A DNA stretch of 34,457 nucleotides from an uncultured Saprospiraceae bacterium (GCA_964513525.1 CAZEOC010000001.1:1048-35504), one strand, 5' to 3'; shown: positions 4,843-32,318, numbered from the stretch's first letter. Made by a program: numbers and translations. The notes: generated from the sequence alone by a model not told the origin.

Positions 4843-6069
4843 ATGAAAAGAGAGTTACAATTGATTAGTTTCTTTTTATTGATAAACCTATCACTTTTTG
4901 CACAGACTCAAAAAGCTCAATTAACCGACTTTCGATTTATTGTCAATGATACACAAGAGTTTCCAAATTACTTTGAAGACGAAGCATTAACGAAGAGAAT
5001 TTATGAAAAGGCGTTAGTGTATATTCGAGAAAAAGTAAATTTAGAAACTATTGTTTCTTACCAAGCTAAAGATATTGAATATCGTTTTTCTCCTCCTTTT
5101 CGAGATAATTTGAATTTAATAGAAAAGAAAAATTTTGATTATTATATTGCGATTACAAGCGTTGCTGGTGTGAATACCGATATTAATGATGCTAAAACGT
5201 ATACAATTCATTTGAAAACGAGAATAGAATCTATTGAAGATACAGTGTTTATTAATACAACTTCTGCAAGTTTTAAACTCACTTTTGAAGAAAGTGCTTT
5301 GTATGATGAAGCCGTTATTTCTAAAAAAGATTTTGAAAATTTATATCTCAATGTGCTTAAAAACACCTTTTCAAAAAAAGAGAAATTAGTAGAAAAAGAG
5401 TTTAAAAAGCCAGGAATTACGGCATATAATGGTTTTATGAAAAAGGCAAATCAATTTGTCTTAAAACAAGAGGATAGAATATTATCAAAACGTTTTTTTA
5501 TTAATCAATTAGAAGATAGTATCAAGTCTTTTCAAATAAAAGAACAAGCGACAACAATTAATGGAACAATCCGAGTACAAGATGTTGCGGATATTTTGCG
5601 ATTCCAAAAGATATTCAATTATCGAGATTTTTTGAATAAAAAACGATTATCAATTAGAGCAGATTATGAAGAAGCGACAGATTTTGAGACGAATGTTCGA
5701 TATATAAAAAGTACCAAACTACAAGTTAAAAATCGGCGAAAAAAGTACACTTTAGAATTTTACCCCGATAAAGAAACAAGCTGGGTTTATACTTTAGATT
5801 GGCAAACTCCTGACAGCGTGAATTATGCTTTAGTTGCGAATCGTTATACCAATTATGTAGAAATATTTTCAAAAAGTGGTTTGTTAACTATCGTTCAATT
5901 GCCTGCTTCTGGTGCAAAATTATTAGAAATTGAAAATCGAAAATATACTTTTTATAACAGGAAAAACTTAACACAGCAGCAAAAAGCAGAAATCAATCAA
6001 CTTTTCGCTTTTTTCTTAATGGCAAATGAATTCATGTCAGAAGTAAACTTGCTACGGCAAGGAAGTTGA
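4843..6069 (+). CDS. Secreted hypothetical protein
   Basis: The ORF track starts at GTG 4834. ATG at 4843 gives MKRELQLISFFLLINLSLFAQ, a clean signal peptide. No recognisable catalytic motif. Confidence 0.65.
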   Translation: MKRELQLISFFLLINLSLFAQTQKAQLTDFRFIVNDTQEFPNYFEDEALTKRIYEKALVYIREKVNLETIVSYQAKDIEYRFSPPFRDNLNLIEKKNFDYYIAITSVAGVNTDINDAKTYTIHLKTRIESIEDTVFINTTSASFKLTFEESALYDEAVISKKDFENLYLNVLKNTFSKKEKLVEKEFKKPGITAYNGFMKKANQFVLKQEDRILSKRFFINQLEDSIKSFQIKEQATTINGTIRVQDVADILRFQKIFNYRDFLNKKRLSIRADYEEATDFETNVRYIKSTKLQVKNRRKKYTLEFYPDKETSWVYTLDWQTPDSVNYALVANRYTNYVEIFSKSGLLTIVQLPASGAKLLEIENRKYTFYNRKNLTQQQKAEINQLFAFFLMANEFMSEVNLLRQGS

Positions 6070-26130: not shown

Positions 26131-29100
26131 GTGAAGAACTTAGAACAACTTTTAGAATTATACAAAAAGGACGAAAGAACGTCGAAGATTGCCAAAGCAA
26201 TAGAACAAACGAAAGCAAATCCGACTGTGCCTGCACGTTTTTTATTGCAGAATATGAAAGGTGGAATTGAGCCATTTGCGATTGCGGGAACGTATCAAGC
26301 AACGCCTTCTTTTCACTTGATTGTAGCAATTGATAAAGAAGAAGCGGCATATTTTCAAAATACTTTAAATAATATTTTTGGAAAAAAAACAATTCATTTT
26401 TTCCCAGACTCTTTTAAACGACCTGCGGAGTTTAAAGATGTTGAAAATCATAACGTTCTACTAAGAACCGAAACGGTTAATAAAGTCAATAATTCAAAAT
26501 CAAGAGGTGAAATTATTGTTACTTACCCAGAAGCATTATTCGAAAAAGTTGTTGCACCGAAGGTTTTGAACGAAACCAAAATCGAGATAAAGAAAGGCGA
26601 AAGTTTAGATGTTGATACAATTTTGGAAGTCTTGATTGAATATGGTTTTGAGCGAGTGGATTTTGTCTATGAACCAGGACAGTTTTCGATTCGAGGTGGC
26701 ATCGTTGATATTTTCTCTTACGGAAACGATATGCCGTATCGAGTAGAATTATTCGATGAAGAAATTGAAAGTATTCGAGTTTTTAATCCTTTAGACCAAT
26801 TGTCTTTGAGGAATATTAGTGAAGTGACGATAATTCCAAATATTCAGACAGAATTTAAGCAAAGTCAGAAAATTTCGTTGTTTAAAATATTACCAACTAA
26901 TACAGCCATTTGGATTAAAAATGTTCAAAATCTGATTGATAGATTACAAATTTGTTTTGATAATGCAGCAGATTTTGCAGCAAATTTGACGGAAGCAGAC
27001 ACAACTGAATCCGCTAAAATTATGCACGAAAGAGCGTTTATCTTACCAAATGTGGTGATGGATGAAGTGACAAATTATGCTGTTTTTGAGATTGCAAAGT
27101 CTTCTTATTTTGAATTTAAAGGCGATGTTGGTGTAACGAATCTTGAATATGAGTCGAAGCCGCAACCGAGTTTTAATAAGAATTTTGCCTTATTAATAAA
27201 TGACTTGAATGAGAATACAAAAAACAACATTACGAATTATCTCTTTACCGAAAATCCTCGTCAGATTGAGCGATTCTATCGCATTTTTGAAGACTTAGAT
27301 GCAAATGTTGTTTTTCATCCAATTAATCAAGCGATTCACAAAGGATTTATTGATTTAGATTTGAAAGTTGCTTGTTATACCGACCATCAAATTTTTGACC
27401 GTTTCCATAAGTATAAATTAAAATCTGGATTTACTAAATCACAAGCTTTAAATATAAAGTTGTTGCGAGAGCTTCAACCTGGCGATTATGTTACGCATAT
27501 TGACCACGGAGTTGGGAAGTATTCTGGTTTAGAAAAAATCAATATTAATGGACATAAACAGGAAGCAGTTCGCTTGATTTATAAAGACAATGATTTGCTT
27601 TATGTAAGTATTAATTCCTTACATAAAATTTCCAAATACGTCGGGAAAGAAGGTAAAACGCCAAAGGTTTATAAATTAGGAACAGACGCTTGGACGAACC
27701 TAAAAACTCGTACGAAGAAGAAAGTTAAAGATATTGCTGGTGAATTAATCAAATTATACGCCAAACGAAAAGCGGCAAAAGGTCATGCTTTTCCACCAGA
27801 TAATTGGTTACAATATGAATTAGAATCTTCTTTTATTTATGAAGATACACCAGACCAAGCAACGGCAACTCAAGCCGTAAAAGAGGATATGGAAAAACAA
27901 TATCCGATGGATAGATTGGTTTGTGGTGATGTTGGTTTTGGAAAGACAGAAGTAGCAATTCGTGCCGCATTCAAAGCAGTTACAGATAATAAACAAGTCG
28001 CAATTTTAGTCCCAACTACGATTTTAGCATTGCAACACGCAAAAACGTTTAAAGAACGTTTATCAGAATTTCCGGTAACGGTAGATTTTGTAAATCGTTT
28101 CAGAACAACAAAGGAAAAAAATGCGATTTATAAACGTTTGGAAGCAGGCGAAATTGATATTTTAATTGGAACGCATGCTATTTTAAATAAAAAGGTCAAG
28201 TTCAAAGATTTAGGTTTATTGGTTATTGATGAAGAACAGAAATTTGGTGTTGCTGCTAAAGAAAAACTACGAGGTTTCAAAGTCAATGTAGATACTTTGA
28301 CGCTTACTGCGACACCGATTCCGAGAACTTTACAGTTCTCTTTAATGGCTGCTCGTGACCTTTCGGTTATTAATACTGCTCCACCAAATAGACAACCGAT
28401 TCATACTGAAGTTCGAGTATTTGATGGCGATTTGATTCGAGATGCGATTTATTACGAAACTATGCGAGGCGGACAAGTTTATTTCTTGCACAATCGAGTG
28501 AAATCGTTACCCGAAATGCGAGGAATGATTCAGCGACTTTGTCCAGATATTGATATCGGAATGGCACACGGACAAATGACACCGAAGGATTTGGAATCAA
28601 CTTTGGTAGATTTTATTGATAGAAAATATGATGTTTTGGTTTGTACGAATATTATTGAAACTGGTTTGGATATTCCAAATGCCAATACGATTATGATTAA
28701 TAATGCACATCATTTTGGATTAAGTGATTTGCATCAATTACGTGGTCGAGTTGGTCGTTCTAATAAGAAAGCATTTTGTTATTTGTTAGCACCACCAATT
28801 TCAGTTTTGCCGCCAGATTCTCGTCGTCGTTTAGTTGCGATTGAAGAATTTTCTGACTTAGGAAGTGGATTGAATATCGCCATGAAAGATTTAGATATTC
28901 GTGGTGCTGGAAATATTTTAGGTGGCGAACAAAGTGGTTTTATTTCGGATATTGGTTACGAAACGTATCAAAAAATCTTAGATGAAGCGATTCAAGAATT
29001 GAAAGAAAGTAAATTCAAAGATTTATTCAAAGAAGAAGTTCAAAAGGAAGGGAAATTTGTGCGTGATGTACAAATTGATACTGATATTGAAATGTTAGTG

Positions 29101-29523
29101 CCTGATAATTATATCAATTCGATTCAAGAACGATTGCGTTTTTATACGGAATTGGATAATTTGAAAACAGACGAAGAAGTCAAAGTATTTGCTCAAAAAA
29201 TTATTGACCGTTTTGGTCCTTTACCTCGTGCTGTGAAGGAATTGTTTAATGGATTGAAGCTACGTTGGTTATGTAAGGATTTAGGCTTTGAACGCCTGAT
29301 TCTGAAAAGTAATAAACTCCGTTGTTACTTTGTCTCTAATCCACAATCGCCATTTTACGAAAGTGAATTATTCCAGAAAGTAATTATGTATGTCAACGGA
29401 AAAGGCGATAGCAAAATGGGGTTCAAAAAATCTGGAAATTACTTTATGTTAATTAGAGAAGGCGTTCGAGATATGACAGAAGCGAAAAAAGTATTGAAAG
29501 ATATTTTAGAAGGCGTGAAGTAA
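26131..29523 (+). CDS. mfd: Transcription-repair coupling factor
   Basis: 1130 aa. CarD-like segment (GDYVTHIDHGVGKY), DEAD/DEAH helicase motifs (GDVGFGKTEVA, VIDEEQKFG) and a TRCF C-terminal domain. GTG start in the track. Confidence 0.93.
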   Translation: MKNLEQLLELYKKDERTSKIAKAIEQTKANPTVPARFLLQNMKGGIEPFAIAGTYQATPSFHLIVAIDKEEAAYFQNTLNNIFGKKTIHFFPDSFKRPAEFKDVENHNVLLRTETVNKVNNSKSRGEIIVTYPEALFEKVVAPKVLNETKIEIKKGESLDVDTILEVLIEYGFERVDFVYEPGQFSIRGGIVDIFSYGNDMPYRVELFDEEIESIRVFNPLDQLSLRNISEVTIIPNIQTEFKQSQKISLFKILPTNTAIWIKNVQNLIDRLQICFDNAADFAANLTEADTTESAKIMHERAFILPNVVMDEVTNYAVFEIAKSSYFEFKGDVGVTNLEYESKPQPSFNKNFALLINDLNENTKNNITNYLFTENPRQIERFYRIFEDLDANVVFHPINQAIHKGFIDLDLKVACYTDHQIFDRFHKYKLKSGFTKSQALNIKLLRELQPGDYVTHIDHGVGKYSGLEKININGHKQEAVRLIYKDNDLLYVSINSLHKISKYVGKEGKTPKVYKLGTDAWTNLKTRTKKKVKDIAGELIKLYAKRKAAKGHAFPPDNWLQYELESSFIYEDTPDQATATQAVKEDMEKQYPMDRLVCGDVGFGKTEVAIRAAFKAVTDNKQVAILVPTTILALQHAKTFKERLSEFPVTVDFVNRFRTTKEKNAIYKRLEAGEIDILIGTHAILNKKVKFKDLGLLVIDEEQKFGVAAKEKLRGFKVNVDTLTLTATPIPRTLQFSLMAARDLSVINTAPPNRQPIHTEVRVFDGDLIRDAIYYETMRGGQVYFLHNRVKSLPEMRGMIQRLCPDIDIGMAHGQMTPKDLESTLVDFIDRKYDVLVCTNIIETGLDIPNANTIMINNAHHFGLSDLHQLRGRVGRSNKKAFCYLLAPPISVLPPDSRRRLVAIEEFSDLGSGLNIAMKDLDIRGAGNILGGEQSGFISDIGYETYQKILDEAIQELKESKFKDLFKEEVQKEGKFVRDVQIDTDIEMLVPDNYINSIQERLRFYTELDNLKTDEEVKVFAQKIIDRFGPLPRAVKELFNGLKLRWLCKDLGFERLILKSNKLRCYFVSNPQSPFYESELFQKVIMYVNGKGDSKMGFKKSGNYFMLIREGVRDMTEAKKVLKDILEGVK

Positions 29524-29543
29524 TTTTTAGAGTTATGGTTTAA

Positions 29544-29574
29544 GTTATCGGACACCTTAAAGGTGTCCGATAAC
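29544..29574. repeat. REP-like palindrome, variant copy (gttatcggacacctt-a-aaggtgtccgataac); probable mfd terminator
   Basis: Perfect 15+1+15 palindrome, 20 nt after the mfd stop. It differs from the other copies at one arm position, with the matching change in the other arm. Confidence 0.8.
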
Positions 29575-29591
29575 TCAGTATTATTGAAAAT

Positions 29592-30593
29592 ATGGAAAAA
29601 TTAGATAAAAGAACGTTCAGAGAATTAATGAAATTAGCATTAATTACGTCTCCTTTTATGGCGATTTACGGACTTTCGCCTGTTTATATTTTTACAAATA
29701 TTCCGACTACCTTATTTTTGAAAGGAATCATGTTTGTAACAATTGGAGCTTTTACAATTTGGTCTTTCAATATTTTTCTACTTAACTCAGGAAGATTCAA
29801 ATTAAAACAACGCTATGCAATTAGTTATCTGCTAACAATTACTATGATTGCATTCATGTCCGTTATGCCTGAAACCATAATTAAAAGACCTTATGAGATT
29901 AATAATTTTCATCCATTCTTAGCAAGTTTTGCAATCAATACTTTGGTGCTAATTATTATTCAAGGTCGAATTGTGAAATTGGCGAAAGATAAGGCAGAGC
30001 AAGAAATTCAAGCTTTGAAGATTAAAAATATGGAAGCACAGCAAAACTTGCTGATGCGACAATTTCAACCTCATTTTTTGTTTAATGCTTTGAGTACCTT
30101 GAAATCATTAATGAATTCTAATATAGAAGAAGCAGAAGAATATTTATTAAAACTATCCAGTTTTTTAAGGTTTTCAGTGGAAGTGAATAATGAAACCGTT
30201 GTTGCATTAGAAAAAGAATTAGAGTTTACGCAGTATTATTTAGATATGCAGCAAATTCGTTTTGAAGGTGCTTTATTCTGTGATATTAAAGTAGATAAAT
30301 CATTATTGAAAATGAAAATCCCTGTTTTTGCTTTACAATCTTTAGTGGAAAATGCAATTAAACATAATGGTTTTTCGGTTGAAAGTCCTCTTTATATAAC
30401 TATTAAAGGTATCGGACACCTTGAAGGTGTCCGATACCTATACATTCAAAATAATAAAATTCCAAAAACACAATTCAACTCTACTAAAACAGGTCTAAAA
30501 GCTTTGAATAAGCGGCATGAAATGATAACCAATGAATCAATTGAAATTATTGATACAGAAAATGAATTTAAAGTTATTTTGAAATTAACCTAA
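29592..30593 (+). CDS. LytS/YehU-type sensor histidine kinase (membrane), carrying an in-frame REP insertion
   Basis: Several N-terminal TM segments, His_kinase box QFQPHFLFNALSTLKSL and N-box LVENAIKHN. Residues GIGHLEGVRYL are encoded by the palindrome at 30407-30439. Confidence 0.85.
   Translation: MEKLDKRTFRELMKLALITSPFMAIYGLSPVYIFTNIPTTLFLKGIMFVTIGAFTIWSFNIFLLNSGRFKLKQRYAISYLLTITMIAFMSVMPETIIKRPYEINNFHPFLASFAINTLVLIIIQGRIVKLAKDKAEQEIQALKIKNMEAQQNLLMRQFQPHFLFNALSTLKSLMNSNIEEAEEYLLKLSSFLRFSVEVNNETVVALEKELEFTQYYLDMQQIRFEGALFCDIKVDKSLLKMKIPVFALQSLVENAIKHNGFSVESPLYITIKGIGHLEGVRYLYIQNNKIPKTQFNSTKTGLKALNKRHEMITNESIEIIDTENEFKVILKLT
30407..30439. repeat. REP-like palindrome inside the histidine kinase CDS (aggtatcggacacctt-g-aaggtgtccgatacct)
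   Basis: Perfect 16+1+16 palindrome, same family as 29544, 31381 and 32171. It is 33 bp long, so it spans 11 codons' worth of sequence and keeps the frame. Read in frame it gives K-GIGHLEGVRYL with no stop. Confidence 0.85.
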
Positions 30594-30603
30594 GTTAAAG
30601 GAA

Positions 30604-31374
30604 ATGAAAATAATTATTATTGAGGACGAAAAACATATTGCAACCGATTTGGTGAATACATTGAAAGCAGTTGGTTCTGATATTGAAATTGTTGAAGTAT
30701 TAAATTCGGTCGCAACCGCTGTTTCTTTTTTTAATAATAAAATTGAAGCAGATTTAATTTTTTCAGATATTCAATTGGGTGATGGTTTGAGTTTTGAAAT
30801 CTATGAACAATTGAATATTAATATTCCAATTATATTTTGTACTGCTTATAATGAGTACGCTTTAGAAGCTTTCAAAACAAATGGGATTGATTATGTTTTG
30901 AAACCTTTCAGTCGAAAAACGATTCGTTTAGCTTTAGAGAAATACGAACAACTTAAAACACAATTTGAAACGCCTAAAAATGATTATGCGGCACTAATGC
31001 AACTTATTACGCAGCAAAATCAAAATACTCCACCTACAAAACCAAAGTCAATCATTGTCAAAAAAGGCGAACACTATATACCAATTGATTTTAATCAAAT
31101 TGCGTTGTTCTATGTAGAAGACAGCTACACTTTTGCCCATACTTTTGAAAAAAAACGATATTTGGTAAGTCAAAAATTAGAGCAATTAGAAACTGATACT
31201 GGAAACAATTTTTATCGAGCAAATCGCCAATTTTTAGTTAATAGAAAAGCTATTAAAGACGCTGTTCAATATTTTAATCGAAAATTATTAATCAATTTGA
31301 CTTTCCCGTTTAAAGAACAAATTACAGTGGGGAAATTAAAAGTGACGGATTTTTTGAGTTGGTTAGCGAAATAG
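30604..31374 (+). CDS. LytTR-family response regulator
   Basis: Receiver domain (IIIIEDE...FSDIQLGDG...KP) plus a C-terminal LytTR DNA-binding domain (YFYRANRQFLVN). 256 aa, 10 nt after the kinase gene. Confidence 0.88.
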   Translation: MKIIIIEDEKHIATDLVNTLKAVGSDIEIVEVLNSVATAVSFFNNKIEADLIFSDIQLGDGLSFEIYEQLNINIPIIFCTAYNEYALEAFKTNGIDYVLKPFSRKTIRLALEKYEQLKTQFETPKNDYAALMQLITQQNQNTPPTKPKSIIVKKGEHYIPIDFNQIALFYVEDSYTFAHTFEKKRYLVSQKLEQLETDTGNNFYRANRQFLVNRKAIKDAVQYFNRKLLINLTFPFKEQITVGKLKVTDFLSWLAK

Positions 31375-31380
31375 GTATAA

Positions 31381-31415
31381 AAGGTATCGGACACCTTCAA
31401 GGTGTCCGATACCTT
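31381..31415. repeat. REP-like palindrome (aaggtatcggacacctt-c-aaggtgtccgatacctt)
   Basis: Perfect 17+1+17 palindrome, 6 nt after the response regulator stop and 78 nt upstream of the RAYT-like gene. Confidence 0.85.
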
Positions 31416-31493
31416 GCGGCGTACGTTAACCCACGAAATCTCAAAATTTATTAATATATTTGGTTATAGATTAATAAAACAATCCCAATTCCT

Positions 31494-32141
31494 ATGTCTA
31501 AAATCGATTATCATGCAAAGCTACTCCCAAATCAATGTTATCATATTTATAACCATGCTGTTGGAACAGAAGATTTATTCAAAGAATTAAGAAATTTCAA
31601 CTACTTTTTAGAGAAATGGCATCAGTATATTTCACCTTATTTTGCTAATTATGCTTACTGTCTAATGCCAAATCATTTTCACTTTTTATCTAAAACAAGA
31701 CCACTTGATGATAGAATTCTTGATAAGATTGCCAAAGAAAATACTAAGAAAGCAAGTGCTTTTTTAGAAGGAGATATTCCAATAAAAGTATTTTACGAAA
31801 GTCAATTTCAAAGATTATTTTCTACTTACTCCAAAGCAATTAACAAACAAGAAAAAAATCGTTACGGTAGCCTTTTTAAAGCAAAATTCAAACGGACTTT
31901 AGTTAAAACAGAACCTGATTTTTTATATTATCTACAATATATTCACCACAATCCTATTCATCATGGGTTTGCAGAAGATTATTTAGATTGGGATTATTCT
32001 ACTTATTTTCTTTATCACGATAATATTGATGTTGAAAATTTATCTAAAGAACCTGTTTTAAAATTGTTTAAAAACGGCAACAATTTAGAAGAATTTATCG
32101 ATTCTCATAAAGATTTTAAAGACAATTTTCGAGCGAAGTAA
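31494..32141 (+). CDS. REP-associated tyrosine transposase-like protein (IS200/IS605 TnpA-like, Transposase_17 family)
   Basis: HUH motif in CLMPNHFHFL. C-terminal catalytic Tyr context YLQYIHHNPIHHGF...W.YST. 215 aa. A TATATTTG (-7-like) box lies at 31455-31462. Confidence 0.8.
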   Translation: MSKIDYHAKLLPNQCYHIYNHAVGTEDLFKELRNFNYFLEKWHQYISPYFANYAYCLMPNHFHFLSKTRPLDDRILDKIAKENTKKASAFLEGDIPIKVFYESQFQRLFSTYSKAINKQEKNRYGSLFKAKFKRTLVKTEPDFLYYLQYIHHNPIHHGFAEDYLDWDYSTYFLYHDNIDVENLSKEPVLKLFKNGNNLEEFIDSHKDFKDNFRAK

Positions 32142-32170
32142 TTTTATAAAATGTATTACGTATTTGTATT

Positions 32171-32203
32171 AGGTATCGGACACCTTGAAGGTGTCCGATA
32201 CCT
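32171..32203. repeat. REP-like palindrome (aggtatcggacacctt-g-aaggtgtccgatacct), probable terminator of the RAYT gene
   Basis: Perfect 16+1+16 palindrome, 29 nt after the RAYT stop, followed by tttatatttttt. Confidence 0.85.
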
Positions 32204-32318
32204 TTTATATTTTTTGTCCACTTCATCTATCTTTTTGTCCATTTCACCATTTTTCTCATTTTTTCCATTTCAATTATCCTCCATATTTACATCATAATTA
32301 ATCAATCAAAAAATTGTG

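Follow-up and report, generated by a model that had tools for sequence, protein, structure and literature searches.

In a stretch of 34,457 nucleotides from an uncultured Saprospiraceae bacterium (GCA_964513525.1 CAZEOC010000001.1:1048-35504; the whole stretch is called the window below), a 33-bp palindrome of the repetitive extragenic palindrome (REP) type is located inside the gene of a sensor histidine kinase, near a gene resembling those of REP-associated tyrosine transposases (RAYT). The question raised by this locus is how such a repeat came to be read as part of a catalytic domain, and whether it is a recent damage to the gene, a tolerated decoration of the protein or a hairpin with a function of its own. 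The explanation favoured here, with moderate confidence, is that the REP copy is old, tolerated and translated, and that the window lineage has probably seen its renewal.

The palindrome and the kinase that contains it

The element occupies window positions 30407-30439 and is a perfect palindrome of two complementary 16-nt arms around one centre base (AGGTATCGGACACCTT-G-AAGGTGTCCGATACCT). Its frame is that of the open reading frame (ORF) at 29592..30593 (+ strand, 333 aa) and is stop-free. Since 33 bp also preserve the frame, the intragenic copy is translated. It encodes kinase residues G273-L283 (GIGHLEGVRYL), flanked in the translation by the N-box LVENAIKHN and by YIQNN. The original prediction, made from the sequence alone, had described the palindrome, its frame and its peptide in the same way, and both sequence and translation agree with it. 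The RNA of this copy forms a hairpin of -27 kcal/mol (z = -8.4). The element has 52% GC, and its host gene has 29% GC with a GC content at third codon positions (GC3) of 0.24. A terminator role was ruled out for the intragenic copy by the absence of a T-tail: it has no T-run (its tail is ATACATTC), and the terminator scan lists the first and fourth palindrome copies but not this one.

The host gene encodes an intact LytS/YesM-type sensor histidine kinase. Its PF06580 match (73.7 bits against a cut-off of 25.2) and the ORF confirm the earlier assignment of the translated palindrome to a kinase of this type; homologues suggest an alternative start at ATG 29628. The DHp domain, the N-box, the GHKL-like ATPase fold and an adjacent LytTR regulator were all found, the last being the cognate response regulator (Response_reg + LytTR; 30604..31374, + strand) directly downstream. 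The best Foldseek match of the kinase model is the GanS kinase domain 6swk (E 1e-9), and the model matches histidine-kinase cores. In alignment A1 (32 sequences, with the window kinase as reference row), all invariant columns are present in the window kinase, by construction.

The AlphaFold model has a predicted local distance difference test (pLDDT) score of 88 overall and 75 for residues 271-280. It places strand 1 at 267-277, the turn at E278-G279 and strand 2 at 280-288. By these limits, strand 1 ends in residues encoded by the left arm, the centre supplies the beta-turn, and strand 2 begins with residues encoded by the right arm. The element is thus predicted to code for the tip of a surface beta-hairpin of the ATPase domain, between the N-box helix and the 'NNK' strand, in line with the tolerated loop insertion that had been proposed as one reading. 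A plain insertion of 11 residues, however, does not describe it. Of 120 homologues, about 113 have a KHN-to-NN spacing of 22 aa; the window kinase has 27 aa, the orthologue P0002 has 24, and two others have 26-27. Without the residues that the palindrome encodes, the hairpin would lack 6 residues, so that the 33 bp stand for about 18 bp of the old tip. On this spacing, the palindrome replaced a 6-residue tip of the beta-hairpin after the N-box, with a net gain of 5 aa.

The 31-mer core of the palindrome occurs four times in the 34.5-kb window (29544-29574, 30408-30438, 31383-31413 and 32172-32202), all within 2.7 kb (29.5-32.2 kb), where the chance expectation is 0.00 (100 shuffles). Three of the four copies are extragenic, each 8-30 bp past a stop codon. 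The first (29543..29575) is a variant, AGTTATCGGACACCTTAAAGGTGTCCGATAACT, with 3 core mismatches; it is located 20 bp past the mfd stop and before the kinase start and is terminator-like, with a T-rich tail. The third copy (31382..31414, centre base C) lies 8 bp past the response-regulator stop and to the left of the RAYT-like gene. The fourth (32171..32203, centre base G) lies to the right of this gene, 30 bp past its stop, and is also terminator-like. The intragenic copy is identical to the two flanking the RAYT-like gene, centre base aside.

The RAYT-like gene (31494..32141, + strand), about 1 kb downstream of the intragenic copy, encodes a class-2 Y1 HUH transposase of 215 aa. Its translation reads LMPNHFHFL (HUH motif NHFH) and YIHHNPIHHGF (Tyr motif YIHHNP). 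The ORF matches NCBIfam NF047646 REP_Tyr_transpos with E 3.7e-16 and 59.3 bits, under the cut-off of 80, and by this score the protein is a relative and no equivalog. It also matches PDB 4ER8 (E. coli TnpA_REP; E 2.3e-4) with the Tyr region aligned, and Pfam gave no match to it even at E <= 10. The original prediction had linked the palindrome, as a REP-type repeat, to this gene, and the copies flanking it support the link.

The family was scanned with the query TATCGGACAYNTTNAANRTGTYCGATA in one genome per GTDB species, which yielded 35 loci. The family core is TATCGGACAC..GTGTCCGATA and the consensus A-GGTATCGGACACC...GGTGTCCGATACC-T. The exact window-type element (33/33, centre base aside) was found in the Saprospiraceae metagenome-assembled genomes (MAGs) L003, L013, L018, L023 and L036, with 1-3 exact copies in each; the sub-type TTATCGGACACTTTNAAAGTGTCCGATAA recurs about 22 times within a single Cytophagales MAG. 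Among 23 distinct copies, paired cells make up 97% of the stem, 6 of 15 pairs show a change on both sides, and the covariation score was reached in none of 500 shuffles. The family hairpin is thus maintained through compensatory variation in Saprospiraceae and Cytophagales genomes. An origin of the family from the kinase gene is ruled out by its spread over genomes of both groups. Rfam gave chance-level matches only (Wolbachia sRNA mel02, 18.6 bits against a gathering score of 290.8).

With 33 bp and 16-bp arms, the element lies within the range of REPs (short stem-loop palindromes of 20-40 bp). A cognate RAYT gene flanked by copies is present at 31382-32203 of the window and at 4378-5173 of L036, where a homologous RAYT gene is likewise placed between two copies. 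The terminal tag GTAG or CGTC of the superfamilies of Di Nocera et al. is absent from the element and its immediate flanks. Judged by these features, the element would behave as a REP family with a REP-flanked RAYT gene (REPtron), without the GTAG/CGTC tag.

Age and fate of the intragenic copy

Only two close relatives of the kinase were found among 5.8 billion proteins. One of them, P0002, is encoded on contig L001 (ENA, 9.8 kb), which is syntenic with the window from the kinase on (kinase, response regulator, DUF2147, OEP); upstream of the kinase the synteny differs, mfd being the neighbour in the window. In the L001 kinase, the corresponding codon position and frame are occupied by AGATATCGGACATATTGAAGATGTTCGATATCT, which agrees with the window element in its 33-bp length, its centre base G and its right junction. 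The two palindromes are identical at 27 of 33 positions (18% divergence), and their flanks at 79% of nucleotides (about 20.5-21% divergence). The L001 peptide at the element reads GH[I]E[D]VRYL. The sole indel between the two kinase genes in this region is 9 bp long, ACT ATT AAA (T-I-K) at 30398..30406 (+ strand), which abuts the upstream edge of the palindrome and is present in the window and in a second metagenomic assembly, contig L037, and not in L001. With this difference, a palindrome-coded Ile of L001 comes to the conserved Ile position of the IxI strand, and repeat-derived codons may have been recruited into the core strand there.

Divergence at synonymous sites (dS) between the window and L001 kinases is about 1.2. 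The ratio of nonsynonymous to synonymous divergence (dN/dS) is 0.22 for the whole gene and 0.11-0.13 for the catalytic part, and the kinase ORF is intact in three assemblies. The outgroup kinase P0091/P0242 on contig L038 has the canonical short hairpin (ENEADKLSIS). Amino acid identity is 73% between window and L001 and 61% and 59% between these and L038. Since the window and L001 kinases are sisters and L038 is canonical, parsimony places a single entry of the element on the window/L001 branch, followed by long retention under purifying selection; we infer one ancestral entry.

The outgroup kinase on L038 (~760-970) and P0242 is frameshifted 7 codons past the hairpin at an A run (CCG AAA AAG). 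Its true C-terminus runs on in another frame, and a second Logan contig (P0242) has the same shifted C-terminus, so the gene may be a real pseudogene or contain a slippery site. The L038 sequence ATC CAC ATT GAA resembles the left arm plus loop at 11 of 12 nt with a 3-nt gap. It was considered as a microhomology or homing site and set aside as a probable coincidence, since the family consensus IxIE predicts most of it.

The neighbourhoods of the two orthologues differ. Contig L001 has neither a RAYT-like gene nor an extragenic copy of the window-type repeat in its 9.8 kb. The REP-RAYT-REP unit (31375..32202, + strand) appears as a clean 828-bp indel: homology to L001 ends at the response-regulator stop codon and restarts exactly at 32203, and L001 has 26 bp with an unrelated palindrome at this site. 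A separate palindrome family, (C)ACAGAnATTnnTnTCTGT(G), occurs in L001 right after stop codons (351-368, 2212-2229, 2743-2762 and 5428-5447); one of its copies occupies the exact REP-RAYT-REP intergenic site, and the family is absent from the window.

At all six positions where the two intragenic palindromes differ, the window has GC and L001 has AT, and the window copy equals the family consensus of other species. A single ancient entry with the same drift on both branches would leave about 3 changes on the window side, and none was observed (P ~0.03 for 33 sites at 20.5% flank divergence); the probability of 6/6 changes falling on a single branch is 0.016. The consensus copy thus stands beside the REP-RAYT-REP unit, which appears to be active, in the window lineage, and the drifting copy stands where the unit is absent, which points to renewal after the split. 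The window copy was probably renewed by gene conversion from its neighbours, by RAYT-mediated exchange or by re-insertion.

According to the favoured explanation, a REP copy would have become part of the kinase gene in an organism ancestral to both the window and the L001 lineages, taking the place of the beta-hairpin tip between the N-box helix and the 'NNK' strand. It would have been translated while the kinase remained under purifying selection, and, since the kinase is so constrained, the element behaves as an old, tolerated and near-neutral decoration of the protein; its neutrality at the protein level is presumed. After the split, the copy of the L001 lineage, which lacks the unit, would have decayed through GC to AT changes in the same way as the gene around it, and the copy adjacent to the unit in the window lineage would have been renewed to the family consensus. 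A wider form of this idea is that a coding REP copy is rewritten to consensus in concert with the genome's other REPs as long as it lies beside a REPtron and decays like coding DNA without one. This generalization is doubtful at present. If true, a selfish-element system would long dictate the sequence of a stretch of an essential-looking enzyme domain, and a DNA hairpin would map onto a protein beta-hairpin, with arm as strand and centre as turn.

Several points weigh against this explanation. The sample consists of one sister orthologue and one outgroup, with no intermediate lineages found: a metagenome scan for close kinase relatives gave none that tblastn confirmed, and a search with the C-terminal 109 aa of the kinase for fragmentary close orthologues gave nothing usable. 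The undecayed state of the window copy (P ~0.02-0.03 under equal drift) requires an extra process or a younger insertion, and the 9-bp indel between window and L001 adjoins the left junction of the element. The outer A-T pair of the L001 copy, which is G-C in the window, is also a natural extragenic variant in L005, so the two intragenic copies could derive from different source variants. The hairpin-tip placement rests on predicted secondary structure and on pLDDT (75 for residues 271-280), and the exposure of the tip is presumed.

These points are partly those of the rival that survives best, i.e. recurrent or independent insertion at a hot spot. Two insertions would then have struck the hairpin-tip site, or a new copy would have overwritten an old relic; the window copy would be young and the L001 copy older, separate and descended from a GATATC-type variant. 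The L005 variant keeps this possibility alive. The undecayed window copy with its 52% GC in a gene with GC3 of 0.24, the difference at the left junction, the adjacency of the REP-RAYT-REP unit in the window only and the four window copies within 2.7 kb, which suggest local activity, all fit it as well. However, the right junction, the frame and the centre base G are common to both lineages, and hitting the same nucleotide twice is improbable without strong targeting, for which no target motif was identified. The palindrome divergence of 18% is also close to the 21% of the flanks. The L001-type variant ATATCGGACATNTTNAANATGTYCGATAT gave 0 matches in JGI metagenomes and is absent from the scanned GTDB species genomes; the L001 type therefore represents no detectable active sub-family. 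Independent insertion is accordingly considered unlikely.

A second possibility, which the original prediction had raised for the mRNA and which is compatible with the favoured explanation, is that the hairpin itself is functional, either in mRNA pausing or processing or as a DNA site for RAYT or a host factor, and that the peptide is incidental. The stability of the window hairpin and its maintenance at consensus could be read in this way. The L001 site folds with its flanks at -25.4 kcal/mol into a 21-bp stem, and of its 16 pairs 15 still match, two of them after a change on both sides (P = 0.008 for 6 changes under unbiased placement). However, a model allowing only GC-to-AT changes gives probabilities of 0.05-0.17 for at least 2 compensatory pairs and of 0.11-0.38 for at least 15/16 paired. 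The L001 33-mer alone reaches -15 kcal/mol, which is unexceptional among simulated decays (17%). Template-switch correction in quasi-palindromes can also yield paired changes without selection, and the intragenic copy has neither a T-tail nor an Rfam match above noise. A function of the hairpin is thus rather improbable, more so than a second insertion.

The original prediction had also offered a very recent insertion in a gene heading to pseudogenisation. The identity of the copy to its neighbours and its position in a catalytic domain would suit such an event. However, the element is shared with the sister orthologue at dS of about 1.2, the ORFs are intact in three assemblies, dN/dS is 0.11-0.22, and the A1-invariant columns are retained in the window kinase (by construction), which makes this reading very improbable.

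It had further been held that an orthologue carrying the segment in a genome without the repeat family would mark it as ancestral coding sequence. The L001 orthologue, with no other copy of this repeat on its 9.8-kb contig, comes halfway to this description in formal terms; the consequence does not follow, since the segment is missing from the outgroup and the rest of the kinase family, and what L001 has at the DNA level is a decayed 33-bp palindrome. That the segment is ancestral coding sequence merely resembling the repeat, as the L001 peptide on a contig without other copies and the left-arm resemblance in L038 might suggest, or that it is an assembly artefact, has a negligible probability in view of its 33/33 identity to a repeat family of many genomes, its 52% GC against 29% in the gene, its absence from the outgroup and about 113 of 120 homologues, and its confirmation by contig L037.

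This contig, an independent assembly (JGI metagenome 3300001269 BBAY87_10009581, 3914 bp), and window 28306-32216 share 99.6% identity. All four palindrome copies are present in it, the intragenic one unaltered, so that an artefact is unlikely. Exact look-ups of the response-regulator and RAYT proteins returned L037 as the sole match. L037 3072-3079 differs from window 31377-31381 by 3 substitutions and a TTT insertion just left of the third REP copy (ATAAA vs CGAGATTT), and this clustering would fit a locally unstable repeat edge or one undergoing turnover.

The old, tolerated REP copy is thus retained as the best explanation. It offers a clean and datable case, beyond Rickettsia and Proteobacteria, of a selfish palindromic repeat turned into permanent protein sequence: the element is fresh in one lineage, and the orthologue of the other has it in decayed form, at a defined beta-hairpin tip of a GHKL ATPase. 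The contrast between an undecayed copy beside a transposase and an orphan drifting copy bears on whether RAYT systems homogenise repeats in place. For annotation, a REP within a coding sequence is by itself no ground for calling a pseudogene or an assembly error.

Other copies and neighbouring sequences

A second intragenic copy was found in L003 (2042-2074; Saprospiraceae MAG CALJIQ010000529.1), where the same 33-bp palindrome is in frame in ORF 1451-2947 on the minus strand. It is read there in another frame (YRTPSRCPI), and the host is a 499-aa GT87-like membrane glycosyltransferase. The copy is placed in a hypervariable loop between two conserved membrane segments, and in homologues of 64-66% identity, where the palindrome is absent, the loop has about this length. 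In P0122 (L039), whose GT87 loop was checked for a decayed REP, only a match to ACACC and a weak inverted repeat of 8 bp were seen. In L013 and L010, apparent overlaps of the palindrome with ORFs concerned 5' leaders only.

The sub-type copies of the Cytophagales MAG JAAFKA01 (L002-L035, e.g. L017 4302-4353) have asymmetric conserved flanks (left, TTGAAAATCAAT; right, AAATTTGTCCACT), and the mobile unit therefore extends beyond the hairpin in this sub-type. The right end of the unit, TAAATTTG, fits TAnnTTTG, the Bacteroidetes -7 promoter motif. The motif TTTGTCCACT is also present 16 bp past the fourth window copy (32219-32228) and in L001 (~2255). In L036, a second related hairpin, AGTGTCGGACACCTCTGAGGTGTCCGACACT, is located at 5066-5096 between the left REP and the RAYT start, and its outer stem shows a compensatory G-C for A-T.

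Single-nucleotide polymorphisms between the window and L037 in the mfd gene are clustered, with 3 in 52 bp (28383-28434) and 5 in 41 bp (28803-28843), and these clusters look like small recombination tracts and not like scattered mutation. At 2502-2582 the window also has an inverted repeat of 33 nt, AT-rich and 88% complementary with a spacer of 12 nt, which has no relation to the REP family. The ends of contig L001 (3-188 and 8580-9785) encode near-identical C-termini of NAD-dependent DNA ligase, with 2 aa differences, and the contig ends do not overlap exactly; a duplication, collapsed strain variants or a quirk of the assembly could account for this.

Comparison with known systems

In-frame 'codogenic' REPs and REP-decorated proteins have been described in Opitutus terrae, Rickettsia conorii, Thauera and others (Di Nocera et al. 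2013, PMC3733652), and GTAG and CGTC tags at one stem end define two REP superfamilies (PMC3733652). As in those cases, a short in-frame palindrome adds here a short peptide to a normal gene, and the family appears to be otherwise mostly extragenic, past stop codons, and is associated with REP-flanked RAYT genes. Unlike those REPs, the present family has no GTAG/CGTC tag and a Bacteroidota host. Its host gene encodes a sensor kinase and not a DNA-repair or replication gene. Here one monomer replaced a hairpin tip (net +5 aa), and a decayed orthologous copy is documented.

Rickettsia palindromic elements (RPE) are selfish DNA within protein-coding genes (PMC3733652, PMC10969869). The kinase copy resembles them as an in-frame palindromic repeat that is kept in a functional gene in orthologues across species; RPE insertions are regarded as fitting into the fold of the protein, and the same would apply here. 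It cannot be assigned to them: elements of the RPE-1 type have about 100-150 bp, encode 30-50 aa and belong to Rickettsia-specific families, whereas the present element has 33 bp, 11 codons and an unrelated sequence. RPE are also without a flanking RAYT gene, whereas the present element adjoins a putative transposase.

Among the class-2 TnpA_Y1 transposases, subclasses 2.4 and 2.6 are frequent in Bacteroidetes (PMC6006769), and REP insertions within genes have been noted for subclass 2.4 (Quentin et al. 2018, PMC6006769). The window unit is similar to TnpA_REP (4ER8) and to both subclasses in having a single Y1 HUH gene flanked by a hairpin repeat that also occurs elsewhere and shows covariation. 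The Tyr and HUH motifs are intermediate between subclass 2.4 (NH[IFV]H, YIxNNP) and subclass 2.6 (NH[LIV]H, YIH[QN]NP) (PMC6006769). Unlike the TnpA_REP systems, the protein reaches 59 bits against the NCBIfam threshold of 80, there are 1-3 exact copies per Saprospiraceae MAG, and the RAYT-like protein is known here from its sequence. In-frame REPs and RPE have thus already been described, and the present case adds one more of that kind. It is distinguished by an untagged REP family of Bacteroidota, by a repeat that took the place of a beta-hairpin tip in the ATPase domain of a kinase, by a dated orthologous relic and by a contrast between a fresh and a decayed copy that tracks the REPtron.

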